Shown: piece by piece, positions 17,028 through 60,191 of the stretch
Numbering within the stretch: the stretch's first letter is position 1
How the letters are laid out: each line of letters starts with the position of its first letter
DNA from: Carcharhinus longimanus
Lineage: Eukaryota
Direction: 5' to 3'
Length of the DNA: 64,000 nt
Assembly (NCBI GenBank): GCA_030264375.1
Contig: JASCQW010000098.1
Coordinates: 57,155,864-57,219,863, forward strand
Made by a program: the position numbers and the translations under genes
The notes under the pieces: generated by a model
Databases searched by the model: none
What the model was told of the DNA's origin: nothing
The model's input: only the letters and a program-made list of their open reading frames with translations

Positions 17028-18607
17028 CATGTTTTTCTTTTGGGCAAGTACCAGATTGAGTGACAGAAGGGCAACCAGTAGCTTTTGACACCTGTGATTG
17101 AAATAAATGATTATTTGAGCCAGTCAGGAAGTGACTTTTTTGTTACCTTGGTACACTCGTAGTGTGATGGTCAGCATCTAAAATGTTCATTCATCCATGA
17201 ATAGACCACTAGGATGAATGTTCATACTTTTCTACACTCATGTTGTCCCCATAATTTTGCAGGCCAGTCACTTCCCTGTTAGGCATGTTCCTCGGCTGCT
17301 GATGCTGACCAATGGTGTCAGAGCCCTGAGACTAGCATAACAGGAAAACAAGGGCTAAAGAGCTTTCTTACAGTACGATAAACAGGATAAACTGCAGAGA
17401 GCTACTCAGTATCCTTTGTTTATGCAACTAATGTATCTGAAGCAATTTTTATAATGAAATTTAAAGTGACTCAGACCATGCAAAACATGGAGCCTTAATA
17501 CTTTGCAAATTAATGCAAGACGGGTTTCAGCACTCTTAAAGCCAACATTAATGTAGCAGCTTTGGCAGTTCGAGCTTTCAAATATTAGTTTAGGCAGAAC
17601 ATCTCTCCTGGGGTACTCTGCGGAAGCTAATACATAACATACTTAATGTGTTCCTAAAGTACTGCATCTGTAAGGAAGTTCCTTCAGAGGGAACATTGAG
17701 AAGAGTTATTCTTCCTAATCGTGCGTGGAAATCAGCATCTGGACATCAAAAGATGCCAGAACCCAGTCACTGTAAGGAACACTGGTTAAAGACAGCCTGA
17801 CAAAGTATATCTGCTAAAAGAGTGTTTCCGCTATGCCGACAGTCAACAATTGAAGCTCAGCAGGTCCACACTGGGCACAAATGGAACTATTTGCTCTGAT
17901 AGCAGAGACGTTGCAATCTTGTTTTAACATCTGGGCACCCACCTGTTCCAGGAGTCATATCTCTCTTTTATAGTTGGTTCATCACATCAAAGGTCATAAA
18001 ACTGGTAAGAATATCATGTATCGTATCTTTTCACTTGTAACAGGCACCATCTCCCCACAAAAAGCAGGCTTACAACTTAGGTGCTTGTTGTACATTACAT
18101 TTCATACATTACAACAATGACTAGATGTCACAACACCTTTTAAAGCACTTTGGAACATCCTGAGGTCATGAAAACCCTATGTAACGGCAAGTTTTCTTTT
18201 GCATGACAATTTGAGTACAGGTAGATTTGAGGCGATTTGTGTGTGATGTGGTATATTGCATTCAAAATAAGCATAAAGCTATTGTACACACAAAATACAA
18301 AATTATGCAGTAAATGCTAGCAAAGTTGGGTTTATCCAGGTCCAAGTACCAGTTAACTGATACTTTAAAATTCAATTATTTTTTGAAAAAATGTAACAAA
18401 ATAAAATTCAGAGACACATATTCATTGTTTTGAATTATTGCCTATTGTAATTCAAACCTAATTTTTGCAGTTCTTTAATTTGTAAACATTTTAATACAAG
18501 TAAGAGTGAAAGTGTAATAACATTTGGCAGCAGAAAAATCAATGAATGGTCGCGTCCAGAGCCTCTGGAGTCAGACTTCTGATAAGTAATCTGTCTTAAT
18601 TCATCAG

Positions 18608-18846
18608 GCATTTCTTATTTAAACCGGGATCTGGATCTTCTCCACTTTTTTGTACAACTGGTCCTGGTTACCCCCTCACTTCAAGCACTGTGTACTCGCC
18701 GCCACCTCGACCTTTGCCACGCAGCACTTTCTCAAGGTCTGCATTCAATCTGAAAAAGCCACACAAGTACTGCAACTGGAAGTGCACTGCCTTGAGTGCC
18801 ATCATCATTTCTGTAACACTGGTGATTCTGCTCGCCTACTTCATTG
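18608..18846 (+). CDS. TENM4: Teneurin-4 exon: end of intracellular domain and most of the transmembrane helix
   Basis: catcag|GCATTTC acceptor, ATTG|gtaag donor. Translates [79 protein letters not shown]. Confidence 0.97.
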
Positions 18847-19709: not shown

Positions 19710-20860
19710 AGGAACATAGGGATAGGAGGAGGCCATTTGACTCATCAAGCCAGTTCTGTCATTCAGTGAGATGAAGACTGATCTGTGATCTAACTTCATA
19801 TACCCATCTTTACCCTGAGCCTTTGGTTAGTAATTATATCCTTAATGAAGCCAGTCTGTCATTCACTGAGATGAAGGCTCATCTGTGATCTAACTGCACA
19901 TACCCACCTTTACCCTCTGCCTTTGGTAAGCAATTATATCCTTAATGCCTTTGGTTAGCAAAAAATTATTAATTTCCATTTTAAAATTAATAACTGATCT
20001 ATCATCAATCATAGTTTGCAGAAGAAAGTTTAGTACCTCTCCCTCCCGTTGTGCTTGGAAGCATTTCTTGGTTTCACATTGGAGGGGTCTAACTGTAATT
20101 TTTTTAGACAATCCCCGTTAAGTCCTATCTACCTATCTGTTCACCTTAATGTCATGGAAACTTTGATTAAATCATTCTTAGTCTTCTGAAATCAGAGAAT
20201 ACAATCCTTGTTTGTGTAATCTCTCACGATAATTTAGTTCTTGCAGTCCTGGTATAATTTGGGTAAATCCAAGCTGTACTCCCTCCAAAGTCAGTGCATT
20301 CTGCCTAAGCCGTGATGCCTGAATTGCTTTAATACTCAAGGTGTTGCTTAGAGCTTTGTAAAGCTGAAACATGGCTGTTATGCACTGGTACTCTAGTCCT
20401 ATAGACATAAAGGGCAGCATACCACTAACCTTGTTTCTTATTTTATGTACTTGTTCATGACATTTCAGTGATCTATGTACCTGGGCCCCAAATCCCTTTG
20501 TACCTTCACTATTTCTAGCTNNNNNNNNNNNNNNNNNNNNNNNNNNNNNNNNNNNNNNNNNNNNNNNNNNNNNNNNNNNNNNNNNNNNNNNNNNNNNNNN
20601 NNNNNNNNNNNNNNNNNNNNCTGGGCCCCAAATCCCTGTGTACCTTCACTATTTCTAGCTTCTCACCATTTAGAAACTTCTCTAGCTGTTTTAAATCTTT
20701 TGGTAGACAAAGTGAAAGACCTGACACTTGGCCCACATTGAAATTCATTTACCATAGTTTTGCACATTCCTTACTCTATTCATTTTATGCTTTCACCTGC
20801 ACCGCTTGCAATGCTGCTTTTGTGCATCATTGACACATTTAGATATGTGGCTTTCTATTT
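19710..20860 (-). mobile_element. Old CR1 LINE 3' portion (RT C-terminus to 3'UTR), spans a gap
   Basis: Minus-strand ORFs read LEGVQLGFTQIIPGLQELNYRERLHKQGLYSL and FKMEINNFLLTKGIK. Confidence 0.85.
19747..19947. repeat. ~100 bp tandem duplication (2 units) within the CR1 3'UTR
   Basis: aagccag(t)tctgtcattca...aattatatccttaatg occurs at 19747-19847 and 19848-19947 with several substitutions. Confidence 0.9.
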
Positions 20861-25290: not shown

Positions 25291-27585
25291 CATCAGCAAC
25301 TTCATTTAATAGTGCCCTTGCAAATATTTCCCCCTGTTTAAATCCCAGACATGGAAATATTCATTTTTTTCACGCTTGCAAATTGAATTCCTTTTTACAC
25401 TGTTCACAATGCTGATGGACTTTAATTCAAAATCCTTTATATTATTGGTTAATGGGATTTAGTCGGTGTTGGTGAAACTACTTTGAATGCCCAGAGAAGA
25501 TGCTCATGAGTCTTCTGAACTGTTACAATGCTTGCAATTATCGTGCCCTCACAGTGGGGATTCCACTTATTGAACTAAAACAATGATGAAAGAATGGGAT
25601 ATTGATCTGAATTTAATTCACTCAGTAATGCAGTGCAAATTTCAAACAGTATCACAGACTGTGACTTCTGAGCTCCGGGGCAGTGTACCTGGGGCTACCT
25701 CAAAGATGCGTTGGCTGCTTCCCCAGCCTCCAGATGTTCCTAGGTGAAGCTCAGCATTTGTCTGGGAAACTCAGACTTCATTGGACAATATCCCAGCGCT
25801 GGGAACCATCCATAAATGCAATTTAAATCACAAACCTTACACCTTACAGCAGTAACTACTCAGAAAAAGGTAGAGGAATTCAAACCACTGCTAGCTTCTA
25901 ACCATCTATAACAGTGACCTCCTCAAACCCCTCACCCTCCACAGGACTCCCTTCAACCCCATGGAACTCTTCCCAGATCCCCCACTATTGCTGCCTGACT
26001 TTGTCCACACCCACTACCCCTCCTCTGACTACTCACTGACCCCTGCCCAAGTGGGATTCCTCTCCCCGCCCCACTCCCTACCCCCCCACAACAATCCCTT
26101 TATCCCTCCCCCCTCCCCCCCAACATCTCCACAGATTTCTGTCCGTTTTAGTGCTCAGGTTAAAGGAATAGATCATAAATAAATCACATCAGATTTCATT
26201 GAAGTGCAAGTGGGCTATGTGTACAGAAGTTTCATAAGATTAACAATAACTGGGGATCCATAGTGACCAGAGGTGAAATCAGAGGTGGAGGCAGCTTGCT
26301 GACTGGTTGATCCTGGATGAACTTGATCCCTGTCCCTGCGCTCTGAAGGCAAGAATCCTGGAGGGCCCTGGCTTACTTTGACTATCCTGCTCTGGGCAAC
26401 TGCTCCCCCTGCCGCCGTCACAGAAGGCAAAGCTGAATGGGTCAGTGACAAAGGGGATCAATAAGGACCAGGCACATTCAGGAGTCCTGAGTGGAGTTCC
26501 CAACGGTTTTTGACAGATGCTCCTCCTTCCTTTGGGTGCCTGAGGGCCCCTGTTTGATTACTTGAGGCGTGGGTGCACCTGGAGGGAGCTTAAGGTGCTG
26601 CATTCTCCTCTCACATCGCCACTGCAAGAGCTCATGCATAGTTACCATGGTGGAGCGTCGGTCTGCATGCACCTCGGCATGAACTGGGTATTCAGGGGCT
26701 CCATGGCATCCGCCACTTACCCCATGAAGATGTCACTATTTCGTCAAAGAGCAAGTGGATAGTCTCCTCCACCTCATGTGCCAGTCTATTGAGGGCCTTT
26801 GACACATCTGTCTGATGATCCCCCCCATCTCTGGCAACTTCCCCAACATCTCATGAATCATCATCATCATCATTCAACTTGGATGTTGTAGACTCCTCTT
26901 ACCAGAAGTTTTCTGAGTGCTGGTGAGTTTAGCTGACCTGCTGAACATGACCCTCAGGTTTCTACATGACTACATTATGCATGGATCCTTACTGGGTCGA
27001 GGTGGCCTGCTGCCCTCTCTATCTGCACAGGCTCAGTCCGGCCTTTCCCTGTCCAGCTCAGCTGCCTGCCTTTTGAGCTCAGTAAGGTTCTTGCGGTCAG
27101 GCCAACCCACTCCTGTATTCTCCCTCTCTTTCTATTTCTATTTCTTTCTCTCTCTGTCTCTCCCTCCCCTGTTCAGCCTTAATTTGGGAGTGAGAGCAAT
27201 TGAGTATTAGGTTTATTTCTCACACTTCCAAATAACCCACTCGATTGTGCACCATGTGACCGATGCACAGCAGCTTTTCCACAAGTATTCTGGCAGCAGC
27301 CTCCAGAGTAGTGATTTTATGCAGATAGAAGGATAAGGCTGATAGAGGCATGTCATTAGAGATGTTTCTTGTTACCCTCAATGCCTAACCCCCACACCAG
27401 TCAGCATTGGGTGGAAGAGTCAGGAACTTAGAGGTGTCTCCACCTGCAGACTAGATGGATTGCAGTGGGGCAATGAGGCATCATCTTACCATATTGAGTA
27501 GCTCTTTTATGCATAGGGTGCACAGATGGTGCCCTTGTCACTGAGGCCTATGTCCCTTCTACCATTCAGTGAGATGACCGCGAGC

Positions 27586-28139
27586 ACAGAATCCATACAG
27601 TGCAGAAAAAGGCCATTTGGTCCATCGCGTCCGCACCAACTCTCTGAAAGAGCATCCCACCCAGACCCACCCCTCCACCCTATTCCTGTAATCCCACCCA
27701 TTTACCGTGGCCAACCCACCTAACCTGCACATCTTTGGACTGTAAGACAAAGTAAAAAGTCTGACAACACCAGGTTTTAGTCCAACCTATTTATTTGATA
27801 ATATACTCACTAGCTTTCGGGNNNNNNNNNNNNNNNNNNNNNNNNNNNNNNNNNNNNNNNNNNNNNNNNNNNNNNNNNNNNNNNNNNNNNNNNNNNNNNN
27901 NNNNNNNNNNNNNNNNNNNNNAACCCGAAAGCTAGTGAGTATATTATCAAATAAATAGGTTGGACTAAAACCTGGTGTTGTCAGACTTTTTACTCTGTAA
28001 GACAAAACCAGAGCAACCAAGGAAACCCACAGAGACGCAGGAAGAATGTGTAAACTCCATATAGTCACCGAAAGCCAAAATCGAACACGAATCTCTGGCG
28101 CTGTGATGCAGCAATGCTACCCTCTGTGCCACTGTGATG
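27586..28139 (-). mobile_element. HE1-type V-SINE split by a Penelope-like insertion
   Basis: Tail half 27586-27750 and head half 27995-28139 rejoin seamlessly at the duplicated ctgtaagacaa. Confidence 0.85.
27751..27994. mobile_element. Young palindromic Penelope-like insertion (family b) with 11-bp TSD; centre in a 100-N gap
   Basis: 27751-27821 is the exact reverse complement of 27924-27994. ctgtaagacaa flanks both sides (27740-27750, 27995-28005). Arms are homologous to 60091-60155. Confidence 0.8.
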
Positions 28140-31100
28140 CCTTTGATCAGTTGAGGATTCACTTAGCCTGGCAGTGCGGATGAGATCGTTCATGGGTTTG
28201 TGGCATTACGAAGCAGCCTCTGGCCCTGCACACTGACCTCTCTGGAGACATCATCCAATGCTAGGTTGCTATGAGAGCCCAGGCTCCTCCTTCCATCCTC
28301 TGGGTAACCCTGGTCTCCCCTGCATTGAGAAGGACCTCCAAGGATGTGTCACAGAATTTGTGGGCCAGAGCTCCCTGTGATCGGTAGGCCACCTCCTCCT
28401 TCAACAGTGGGAAAGTTGATGTCCGGGCACTTTTTAAATATGGTGCCCAGATATGGTGGCAGGGCATGTGCCATTCAACCTGCCCTGCCACGGGAAAAAT
28501 GTGGGGAAACTCCCAACTGTATAATGAATGAGGTTGGGGCCATGGAATTTAGGCTCGGAATGGACAATGCCCCCTGTAATCTTTACTAAACTACTACAGG
28601 AGCGTTCTCAACCAAAGGTCTGAACCAAACCACAGCCAGTGACAATACTTGGTATGTCTCCTAAGATGTAATTCACAGAAGGACATTGGTTTTAATGTTG
28701 TGACACAAAACATGGTCTCCTGGTAAGTATTCACAATTCCAACAATGAGAGGGGAAGGATGAAAAATGAACTAAAATGGGGGAAAGCAGATCATTTAAAT
28801 TCCTTGTTGCAGTTCTGGGTTTTAAGAGTAAATATATACACATAATATAAACAAAATAGTGTTATTCTCACATGTGAATTTACCTGAGTGTGTATAAAAT
28901 ATTACTATACAGTGTGATGTACTTTACCTGTCATCTATAATTGATCACTTTCTGCTGAATGCAATATAGGATCATCACGCTACATTGACATTTAAAACAT
29001 TTTGATTTTGTCCCAATATTAGACATCTTAATGTTTGATTTGCAATATGCACCATGCCATTCCAAGTCCAAGGTGGATGTGATTTGGGAAAAGTTTACAT
29101 TTCATCACACCAACTTTCAGGAATTCAATGGTCGTGATCTACCGCCCCATGACGTGTTTTCCAGTGGCAGAGGCAACTCACCGTTGGATTTTCCGGTCCT
29201 TCTGAAATCTGTGGCGTTTTCTATGGTTTGCCTGCCCACCACCAGGGAACCTGTCTTTGGGGGTTGCTTTTGGTGGGACCGGAAGATCCTGCGAGTAATA
29301 AAGGCTGGAAAATCCCTCACAATGTTTCTTTTATATTGTAGATCAAGTACCTGACACAAAAAGAACACTTCTTTGGCCTGCAAGTTGTTTTGAAGTGGAA
29401 AGAATAAATTAGTTAATTTTGCAGTTCTTTTAGTGATCTGCAGGCATTTTCAATAATGTTGTAAAATTGTTTCCTTAACTATATAGTCAAGGTTAGCCAG
29501 CTTTCACCACATCTCTGCAAAAAGTAATCATCCAGATAAGATACTCGCATCTATTCAAAACTCAATGTAACGGCGCAGGTCAAAAACTGAGGCATAAGTT
29601 GATGTTGCCCATAGATTTTTTATTATAAATTTCTGTATAAATCAATTATTCTGCTTTTCTCTCAATAAAAGGTATGCTGTAAACATTAAAGACAATATTT
29701 AGGGCCATGTGCTGAGATAGAAAATACCCAATTGGCTTCAGTTGGCAGATGCTTAACTCAGTTGCCGAATCGCTGCAGTTTGTTCCAAGGTTCCCAGAAT
29801 GGAATTCTCCATTAGAGTTGGGCAAGATTTTATGATTTAGCCAGAGTGAGGCCATAAAATCCCACTGATCTGTTGCTGTCACCTCACCTCACCACACCCC
29901 TTCTCCCCACAGTGTTTTCCCTGCTTGCTGCCTGAGAAAACACTGACTAATTCTTGCTCGCAGTGCTGGAACTGCAAAATAACATTGAAGTAAGATGCAT
30001 GGATGACACTTCTTTTTTTTAATATATTTTATTTTGTCTTGTGTTAGTTTTTACTCTTTGTATGCATCACCTATTTGAACCATAATACAGCTACATCATA
30101 TTCATGTCTTGCCAAATTGTCTCCAGCTGTGGTAACATGACAAGATCTAATTACTGCAGCTATTACTGGACTCTGGGCCAAACTAACTTGAACATTTTTA
30201 TGCTTCATAGATTAGAATGTCACATGCAGCCAACTGCAAAAGGCAGTTCATGTTACGTTGTTATGATCCAAGTGGAGTAGTCAGCCTCTCACTGATGTAA
30301 TTTGCTCTAAGCTGCCTTATCAGAGATAAGGCTTTGAAAATGATAGGCTGATGGTGGATTATACTGGTCCAAATCTATCTATTTAAACGTATTTCCAATC
30401 ACATTTTATTCTTTGCATCTCCTAGCAGCATGAAACATTATTTTCAAGTTAGCCTGCACTGAGGTACATAGCCATTTGCTGTCACATAGAATATTGCAGT
30501 GTAGCTTTTCTTCATCCCAAACTAAGGTTAATGTCAAGAGCCATAATAAGCCAAGCACAATTGCCACCAGCAAGCAAAACTTGAGTCTTTTCAATCTTAA
30601 ATTTAATTTCACACATTCTAATTGATTTGGCCAGAAATTTATTATTGTAATACTGTGGCCAAATCACCAGTAAGGTCTCGGAAGAAATTTAATGTGAATA
30701 TTTTTCTGTGCCGAGTTTTGTTTGTTAGGGTATATGCTTCACTAACTGCCTGTCGCTTTCTTTTCTTTTCCTCACAATCAGTTCTGCTTTTCTCATCCTA
30801 AGCACTCTTTCTCGTTCCATCAATCTGTCCCAAAGGGCCTTTTTTTTCATTGACCTTGTGGATCATCATTTTGTTGGTCTTCTTTTTAGCCTTCCCACAC
30901 TTCTCTTTTCCTGCTGAGTGCAGTAGTTGTCCTGCCTATCCAGCTGTGTGATGAATTAGTAAGGTGATAGGGCTAACAAAAGAACAAAAGATTCCCTCAA
31001 GTCAGAACAGATTGGTGTCTAATGTACTATTTTAAAATTAGAAATAAGATTCACATCAGCCTATTCCCTCATGCACTGAAAAAAATAACTCGTCCCCTTC

Positions 31101-32304: not shown

Positions 32305-33619
32305 AACATAACTGTTTCTACATAACCAAATAGACTTCAATTGGCTGTTATTCAATGTCACATTTTTGAAAAGCAGCACTTAATATCTTCGAGACACAGA
32401 AATAATGCTGAAAATAACTTTGACACTATCATGATTGATCACTGCAAAGTACAAAGAAGAAACACAACAACTTCAGTTCTAAAATTAAATAGTTATCAGC
32501 AACTCCTCTGTGACAACTAGAGAAAAATAGAATATAAATGGGAAGATGTCATCCTATTTTTACTTTTGGCTTGTAAAATAATCATTTTTGTCAATATCTA
32601 ATAAGATCACATCCCTAAACATTTCTCCCACACAAGGAAGAGTTTTATAAGTTCCGTTACCCAGCCTTGGTTATCAGTACTGTAGGCAATGTTTTAAACA
32701 TGTTGTAAATGCTATCACAAAATTTTTAGATTGCTTCACAGATAGTACAAATGGACAATAAGATAATGCACTTACTTGGCCACTGTATGATAAATCCGAA
32801 CATTGTTTCCAGATGAAATTTACTCTACAAAATTCGTTCACTGCCAGGGTGGAATTTTCCTGCCCTGCCTGCCCACCACGGGAATTGTAGCAGGTGGGAA
32901 AGAAAACTTGACGGACCACAGAAAGGTCTGTTGAACTTGGGTTGGAATTTCCAGTTTTGGGGCACACAAGGCTGGAAAACCCTGCCCATGAAGTGCAAAA
33001 TCCAACTTCAGCAGAAGTACAAAATGGGTACCGGCAGACCATACAACATCCTGCCCAATTTCCCCTCGCATTCAAGGTGGTGGCCTGCTGCCACCAAATG
33101 TGGGCCCCTCCAAAAGTTAAAATGAACTTCTGTAATGTACCACATTACACATTGGTGAGGCTGCCCTTTTCAGTAGGAAATGATTGGACAAAAGTGCACA
33201 AGCTGTACGACTGTATAAGCTTTGGTGCATCTGCATAAGTGCAGTGACATGCACGATACCAAGTAAAATGTCATTACCAATAATAAAAAGAAAGCTACTA
33301 ATAATTTAATGCATTGAACACAGATCTGTAACCGTCGCAATATGGCTTTGTAGCCTCGGTAAGGAATTAATTTCAAGACTGAAACCTGCACATTATTACA
33401 CCATATATGATAAAGATCCAGTTTTCTACAATTTTGCACTGCAACTTTGTGGAGATAACTGGATTGGAACATTTGTGTGCGATCTGCAAATAATCACTTA
33501 AAATACAGAAAAGTCCTATTCCAGGCCGCCTCACTGTACTGTACATCGCTGCCTGACTTATCCAGAACTCCTGCAGTGATCCAGCCAGAAAAAGATGACT
33601 TTTCTCATTGCTATCACAG

Positions 33620-33790
33620 CCATGCACCTGTTTGGCCTAAACTGGCACCTGCAGCCGATGGAAGGGCAGATGTATCAGATCGGTGAGGACAAAGCCAGCA
33701 GTTGGCCAGTGCCAACGGACGTCACATTGTCTCCCTCTGGTGGCACAGGTTTAGGCTTGCCTGAAAGGAAAGGCAAAGGACCCAGTGAAG
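33620..33790 (+). CDS. TENM4: Teneurin-4 exon: end of TM helix and extracellular juxtamembrane linker
   Basis: tcacag|CCATG acceptor, GAAG|gtatgg donor. Translates (A)MHLFGLNWHLQPMEGQMYQIGEDKASSWPVPTDVTLSPSGGTGLGLPERKGKGPSE; the linker is diagnostic of TENM4 over TENM1-3. Confidence 0.97.
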
Positions 33791-34421
33791 GTATGGTCTA
33801 CTGTAAACATAATCAATACTATGAAACTGCTTTGAAATCTGCAGTGTACTTTATGTTTAATATACAAGGCTTTATTTGTAAATGATATTTTTAGAACTGT
33901 ACACGCAATGTTCCCTTTTAATATTTTTCTGTCTTCTCGTTATTAGGAAGCGAGTTTGCTCATTCTCGAACAATTCTATGATCTCATGTGAGCTTTAGTC
34001 AAATGAATATACACTGTATTTTGTGTATATTACATTGTGGTGGATTACGTTTAAGCAGAGTTATTTGATGACCATGACTTATACACATAAACAAAAAGAC
34101 ACTGCACAATGACATGGAGTCAGATATAAATTTTTGCAATAACCATACATTCCCAAAAAATGTTCCGATATGAAACCTCTTCAAAAGCAGTGGCGTGAAA
34201 ATTTTAATACCCTCCATGGCTGACACTGACTTGGATAACCTTCAAATTGGACCCATTCCTACGTTCCAAACTTGCAATATACACCCACAATGTGTTAATG
34301 AATGCATGTAGGCAGCCTATCTTTTTTTAATCTGCTGTCTGTGCTGTGATCACAGACCTCTAGGTATTAAATTGAGAATTTTGATTTGTAATTCAAAAGT
34401 TCTTGCTGTTATTTTGATTTT

Positions 34422-60059: not shown

Positions 60060-60191
60060 TAATAACACTCACCTGTTGAAGGAGCAATGCTCTGAAAGCT
60101 CGTGATGCCAAATAAACCTGTTGGACTTTAACCTGGTGTTGTGAGACTTCTTACTGTGCCCACCCCAATCCAACGCCAGCAATTCCACATC
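60060..60191 (+). mobile_element. Penelope-like terminal repeat (family b)
   Basis: gaaagctcgtgatgccaaataaacctgttggactttaacctggtgttgtgagacttcttact is homologous to the arms at 27751-27994. Confidence 0.78.
60069..60105 (+). ncRNA. Minimal type-I hammerhead ribozyme motif (one core substitution)
   Basis: UCAC-CUGuUGA-A-GGAGC(aau)GCUCU-GAAA-GC-UC-GUGA: stem I UCAC/GUGA, stem II GGAGC/GCUCU, palindromic AGCU stem III, CUC triplet. Confidence 0.7.

Follow-up and report, generated by a model that had tools for sequence, protein, structure and literature searches.

A young Penelope-like insertion with inverted ends and hammerhead sequence in a teneurin intron of Carcharhinus longimanus

The window analysed here is a stretch of 64,000 nucleotides from Carcharhinus longimanus (contig JASCQW010000098.1, positions 57,155,864 to 57,219,863 of the forward strand). 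It contains part of a teneurin gene on the + strand, presumably the paralogue TENM4, and two later exons of this gene match teneurin-2/3 chains in PDB. The intron between the exons near 18.6-18.8 kb and 33.6-33.8 kb carries a repeat of the short interspersed type, which we take to be a SINE, and this repeat is interrupted by an insertion with inverted arms. A place within the TENM4 pre-mRNA had been proposed in a sequence-only reading of the window, and the flanking exons and PDB matches agree with an intronic position in a teneurin gene. The features of the locus, together with an older relative of the insert elsewhere in the window, are given below in window coordinates.

18600..18845, +, teneurin exon with the transmembrane region, upstream of the host intron (approximate bounds, from translation and short motifs)
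27585..27739, +, 5' part of the host repeat, split by the insertion (the joined flanks align with about ten window relatives)
27740..27750, +, left copy of the target site duplication (TSD), 11 nt, present as a single copy at the empty site
27751..27821, -, inverted arm, a tail-less 3' end of a Penelope pseudo-LTR and exact reverse complement of the right arm
27805-27821, -, 3' half of a hammerhead within the inverted arm
27822..27921, no strand, unsized assembly gap written as 100 N; its real content may be anything from tens of bases to kilobases
27922..27994, +, direct arm, with the last 2 nt of loop II, the 3' strand of stem II, GAAA, the palindromic AGCU, a predicted cleavage site after A27934 (CUA triplet), the 3' strand of stem I and a tail-less pseudo-LTR end
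27995..28005, +, right copy of the TSD
28006..28140, +, 3' part of the host repeat (from the joined-flank alignment)
33610..33810, +, teneurin exon downstream of the host intron (approximate bounds, from translation)
60066..60191, +, older solo pseudo-LTR end with a tail, a mutated hammerhead core and a 5-bp stem II

Comparison within the window confirms the earlier observation that the arm at 27751-27821 is, along all 71 nt, the exact reverse complement of the one at 27924-27994. Both are bounded by the 11-nt direct repeat CTGTAAGACAA, found at 27740-27750 and 27995-28005; a twelfth repeat base, A, coincides with the first base of the arm. When the insert is excised in silico the host repeat is restored with one copy of the 11-mer, as expected of the TSD that had been claimed, and the sequence across the junction aligns, with 65-78% identity, to about ten window relatives. 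The right arm opens with the 3' half of a minimal hammerhead (CCC at 27924-27926, GAAA at 27927-27930, GC-U-A at 27931-27934 and GUGAGU at 27935-27940), and the left arm mirrors it on the - strand, so that both arms begin as the sequence-only reading had them. The central gap is a placeholder of exactly 100 N, identical to placeholders at 20521 and 57501. Exact complementarity stands from the description of perfectly palindromic 71-bp arms, but 71 nt is not a biological length. In 26 of 30 sibling copies of the element the gap starts 65-78 nt into the arm, so the arm length measures the assembler's reach into a high-copy repeat. The window arms look symmetric because both begin at the same element position.

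The insertion is genuine and young. Contigs of the runs X2, X6 and X7 carry host positions 27714/5-27739 directly before 27995, with one 11-mer and no insert; the left side of these contigs comprises just 25-26 letters of repeat sequence, below the 31-letter bridging rule. The filled right junction is present in run X1, where a contig spanning 27972-29137 shows 0 differences over 1166 letters, including 23 nt of the arm. The left junction is absent from the X1 rows shown, no contig in the runs compared spans the gap, and runs X5 and X8 hold nothing informative at the junction. Because other runs show an empty site with one repeat copy, the insertion is recent and its duplication is a true TSD, in line with the recent origin that had been proposed. 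In the flank, the empty-site contigs diverge from the window sequence at about 1-3% of positions (17/1606, 6/372 and 11/426), and the insert is thus either polymorphic or species-specific. Elsewhere in the flanks, a pyrimidine-rich simple repeat at 27116-27171 coincides with contig breaks, and at 28973 the sequence of run X6 contains 23 nt more than the window.

The arm belongs to an abundant family. Its 64-nt core has 414 exact matches in the 2.68 Gb of genome searched, and the full hammerhead pattern with the core CUGACGA has 394; the control gave 0 for each. Upstream of the arm, three copies (L040, L024 and L113) continue through a 3' region of about 280 nt into the end of an open reading frame (ORF). 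Peptide searches from such ORF ends returned 22,730 and 3,087 candidates, and 150 were scored in each. The coding link is found inside single TSD-bounded inserts, with an endonuclease C-terminus in L024, the ORF stop in L113 and a reverse transcriptase (RT) fragment in L119. In the last of these, the RT fragment and an exact young arm lie within one TSD around a 100-N gap; the young arm therefore travels with a coding element, and a 100-N gap can conceal a long stretch of that element.

The RT domain RVT_1 is recognised at the family level with E 7.7e-9, above the cut-off, in L080 and with E ~2e-6 in L079 and L086. A GIY-YIG domain with an internal C-x3-C and a CCHH motif is visible in family members L065, L070 and L084. 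The Pfam GIY-YIG model matched one of a first three endonuclease frames with E 0.0011, below the cut-off, and neither of two more, which makes one of five frames scanned; among Atlas neighbours at 0.96-0.97, GIY-YIG is present on 13-56% of the members. Between RT and endonuclease lies a C-x4-C-x2-C linker (PCHSNLCKTC and variants), for which the definition CX2-5CxxC was taken from the available text of PMC8557442. Copies with ORF sequence are also flanked by inverted arms. The 20 RT-bearing and 12 young-RT loci contain no intact full-length ORF, and the longest stop-free stretches (485-498 aa) occur in older copies. Long 'open frames' from the endonuclease search proved to be runs of N and were rejected. 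A Penelope-like origin had been proposed together with a search for RT and GIY-YIG frames, and both are linked to the arm sequence at the family level. By these sequence criteria the arm is assigned to the 3' pseudo-LTR end of an endonuclease-bearing Penelope-like element. The clade is likely Neptune, as judged from the linker motif, which Nematis shares; the choice of Neptune over Nematis is inferred from a statement in the available part of a preprint that vertebrate hits were Neptune or Poseidon. The literature search met no open paper on this Penelope family in sharks, and Repbase and supplements may already hold it. Beside one old Penelope copy, an uninterrupted frame (L064:3-1121, 373 aa) resembles, by eye, an actin-related protein.

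Statistics on element ends were drawn from the 414-match set because the 40 scored candidates were biased to ends followed by C. Among the first 30 of the 414 exact matches, 17 have an inverted partner arm, and in 17/17 this partner carries a tail of 36-41 nt (16 identified by script, L120 by eye). The end asymmetry in these siblings (L092-L121) is strict, with one end tailed and the other tail-less in all 17, and TSDs of 11-13 nt were called in 14 of them. Gap-free inverted copies also occur, at L053 (~430 bp), L055 (~200 bp) and L102. The L055 copy (L055:1390-1600) is a gap-free palindrome of ~200 bp, tail-less at both ends, with a hammerhead on both strands. An inverted partner arm is thus the norm for this family and follows the published Penelope pattern, for which an inverted layout, a one-sided tail and trouble with short-read assembly are described in the available passages of PMC8557442 and PMC3846280.

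Several smaller irregularities accompany these copies. The left junction of L055 has a short match to the inner tail, and this copy is the closest model for the window insert. Six siblings (L111, L112, L114, L115, L119 and L120) have 2-8 nt of tail sequence between the tail-less arm and the TSD, which makes the inner end slightly ragged. Short partial head-to-tail duplications of pseudo-LTR ends surround 100-N gaps at L093, L124, L014 and L029, either as real tandems or as assembly duplications. The sole close opposite-strand pair among the 100 matches listed of 414, L122, is tailed.

Any CUGANGA box of the window locus would fall within the gap, and the box is seen in family-level loose ends only. 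The core had been placed just upstream of the arm by reference to the older copy near 60069, which was said to show CUGAUGA. The placement holds for the family, whose core there is CUGACGA, but at 60073-60079 the older copy has CTGTTGA, in which the catalytic core carries an A6>U change, and it is no witness to CUGAUGA. An intact core is present in 15 of 41 stretches from ORF-bearing loci. For alignment, 15 of the 41 were excluded beforehand (misprojection, indels or a missing motif), and the remaining 26 were joined by one young copy and the 60069 copy. In these 28 rows, pairing in stem II is 88%, and 4/5 pairs show double changes; the covariation control (4/500 shuffles) ignores relatedness, and we treat this result as supporting only. 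Rfam returned no hammerhead family at E <= 1 in L061, L033 or L053, and its microRNA and HBV matches were rejected as generic hairpin matches below the gathering score.

Among four gap-free young siblings, two break off short of the core. The window gap probably contains at least one hammerhead core, and the chance that both window arms have one is slightly better than even. An isolated young copy is predicted to fold into stems I and II around an unpaired core; in L053 and L055, a long hairpin is predicted to enclose the ribozyme. The family hammerhead corresponds, by analogy, to the known minimal, dimer-dependent type. Such motifs are reported, in the available text of PMC4209133, to show no cleavage as monomers and low cleavage as dimers. 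One Penelope hammerhead that has been examined depends on the protein of its element, and insertion proceeds without that hammerhead (PMC11167929). Young-subfamily copies have a stem II reduced to 3-4 bp (L100:1480-1545). In a variant with the loop UCUAA, stem II can pair instead with a stretch ~30 nt downstream, which would dismantle the hammerhead, although the z-score is just -1.25.

Two readings would change what the insertion is. The inverted layout could be a scaffolding artefact in which a single copy was written twice, in opposite orientations, around the gap. An unsized 100-N gap, an arm length dictated by the assembler and a left junction missing from the read rows shown are what such an error might leave. 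However, the two arms run into different flanks, each its own, and in three other runs those flanks adjoin with a single copy of the TSD between them. Inverted siblings without gaps exist, and inverted sequence joins direct arm sequence, at the family level, in contigs of all four runs used for this comparison. An artefact is consequently very improbable. The sequence-only reading had also offered a separate, little-described ribozyme system, and the insert might then be a dedicated non-autonomous retroelement, retrozyme-like or a miniature palindromic family, that moves as a unit. Most young copies do show the pseudo-LTR end alone, short gap-free palindromes such as L055 exist, no intact young ORF was found, and animal retrozymes are argued to descend from Penelope pseudo-LTRs in the available portion of bioRxiv 10.64898/2026.07.22.740005. 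Against this, 5' truncation occurs at many positions, in some copies within the hammerhead and in others as far up as the RT, and the coding-linked inserts L024, L113 and L119 weaken the case. Retrozymes are defined in the same portion of that preprint as head-to-tail tandems with a ribozyme per unit. The visible parts of the window insert are inverted and show no head-to-tail units with complete hammerheads, although the gap could conceal a tandem, siblings vary in their 5' ends, and the only tandems seen are short duplications (L093 and L124). We regard a dedicated element as very improbable: the arm belongs to an element with RT and GIY-YIG, and its inverted, TSD-bounded layout is already published for Penelope. 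The locus very probably holds a recent TSD-bounded Penelope-like insertion, likely of the Neptune clade, with a copy of the 3' pseudo-LTR at either end.

The origin and the effect of the mirror arm are less settled. Two-sided priming is modestly favoured. The RT-endonuclease would nick both target strands 11 nt apart, and the same RNA end would be copied from each nick, starting at two sites that bound the tail. Both copies would be 5'-truncated and would meet at their truncation points, inside the gap in the window. In the siblings, one end would start at the outer site and keep the tail, and the other would start at the inner site and lack it. A Penelope protein does nick and extend both strands in vitro, starting at two tail-bounding sites (PMC11167929). 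The same element could instead have formed the mirror arm by fold-back, or self-priming, of a single cDNA or antisense template, as proposed in the available text of PMC3846280 from palindromes at inverted Penelope junctions. The near-symmetric centres of L053 and L055, with loops of 4-7 nt, would suit this pathway and fit two-sided priming equally. The unequal arms of L102, L044 and L056, joined at unrelated points, speak against fold-back, and the pattern of one tailed and one tail-less end in 17/17 agrees with the in vitro findings of two start sites and of extension on both strands (PMC11167929); fold-back is possible but the less likely choice. The hammerhead would be a passenger, since it has no stem III of its own and needs a second sense copy. 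An active ribozyme might nevertheless act in the sense of the teneurin pre-mRNA, cutting or destabilising it. The right arm has the sense orientation of the gene, a hammerhead fold is retained in the family, with the paired and doubly changed stem II described above, and stems I and II form the minimum-energy fold of the isolated young copy. Yet the motif would be a monomer without stem III, stem II of young copies is merely 3-4 bp, pairing between the entire motif and the antisense arm is predicted, and minimal motifs are inactive alone (PMC4209133, available text) or dependent on the element protein (PMC11167929). Within the teneurin pre-mRNA, the hammerhead would thus be paired with the antisense arm and would likely not cut host transcripts. 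Cleavage by a minimal hammerhead locked in a perfect hairpin is unlikely on these models, ribozyme action on this gene is given very little credence, and the window copy is likely inert.

The window copy departs from its siblings in one respect. Neither of its ends has the ~35-nt tail that 17/17 siblings carry on one end, and it is the only tail-less pair among 18 comparable inserts. At the left target, 15 of the last 20 nt match the inner tail; matches to the inner end of the element tail lie in the last 4-5 nt of the left TSD and in the 8 nt around 27735-27742. No other site among the 24 compared attains the target/tail score of 21 seen here, and 1/20,000 random 20-mers reaches it, the score having been chosen post hoc, after the match was noticed. 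Three tailed siblings, L118, L098 and L114, score 18, 16 and 14, and two have equal or better duplex energy than the window; by this measure the window site is not set apart (269/20,000). Two-sided priming would accommodate the exception if the inner site was used at both ends, an outcome that pairing of the left target end with tail RNA would probably explain. These matches hint at homology-guided priming at this locus, as a lead from one case; later loss of the tail by deletion between short matches is possible too. More generally, and only tentatively, the Penelope RNA end may be copied from both nicks, at the outer and the inner tail boundary, with target-tail pairing overriding the choice and the window copy as a natural exception. 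Priming in vitro was reported to proceed without target homology (PMC11167929). If target-RNA pairing selects the start site, that published view would be qualified.

The window insertion is mostly ordinary, being one of hundreds of young Penelope insertions. The single locus matters little, except that its presence or absence can serve as a marker. Young, abundant and subject to a tight rule of one tailed and one tail-less end, with TSDs of 11-13 nt, the family offers a large natural data set. These copies bear on how Penelope elements form inverted ends, a step that the first in vitro study did not settle.

Three known groups of elements resemble the family. Pen2/Pen2a_Av of Adineta vaga, as described in the available text of PMC3846280 (scheme in PMC8557442), likewise combines a 5'-truncated copy with an adjacent inverted copy, a variable TSD, a tail of 30-40 nt at one end (here in the siblings) and short-read assembly gaps. 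Unlike the rotifer copies, the window copy is tail-less at both ends and its TSD is 11 nt rather than 8-10 nt. The Neptune clade, in the available text of PMC8557442, shares the order of RT, C-x4-C-x2-C linker and C-terminal GIY-YIG with an internal cysteine pair, and also a hammerhead within the pseudo-LTR. The sibling TSDs differ from the account of Neptune there in showing no microsatellite targeting. The Poseidon element PAc of Anolis carolinensis (PMC11167929) is similar in its two end positions bounding the tail, its hammerhead in the pseudo-LTR and a tail that adjoins the ORF start (here in L079). PAc belongs to the Penelope/Poseidon clade without the linker, which the present family has. 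Its start codon lies inside the hammerhead, whereas the ORF of the present family begins after the tail, and PAc primes without target homology (PMC11167929), in contrast to the pairing suggested for the window.

The hammerhead itself shares several features with the minimal type I motifs of metazoan Penelope elements in the available text of PMC4209133: an extra nucleotide after A9, the G10.1-C11.1 pair, a palindromic 15.2-16.2 without loop 3 and opposite-strand copies 100-700 bp apart. Stem II of the young subfamily, at 3-4 bp, is shorter than the 7-8 bp of the schistosome motifs. Non-LTR retrozymes, as presented in the available part of bioRxiv 10.64898/2026.07.22.740005, have in common with the family a type I hammerhead, short non-coding copies and kinship with Penelope pseudo-LTRs. 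The window insert is set apart from them by its inverted rather than head-to-tail tandem layout, and the family by 5' truncation that is variable and extends into the ORF.
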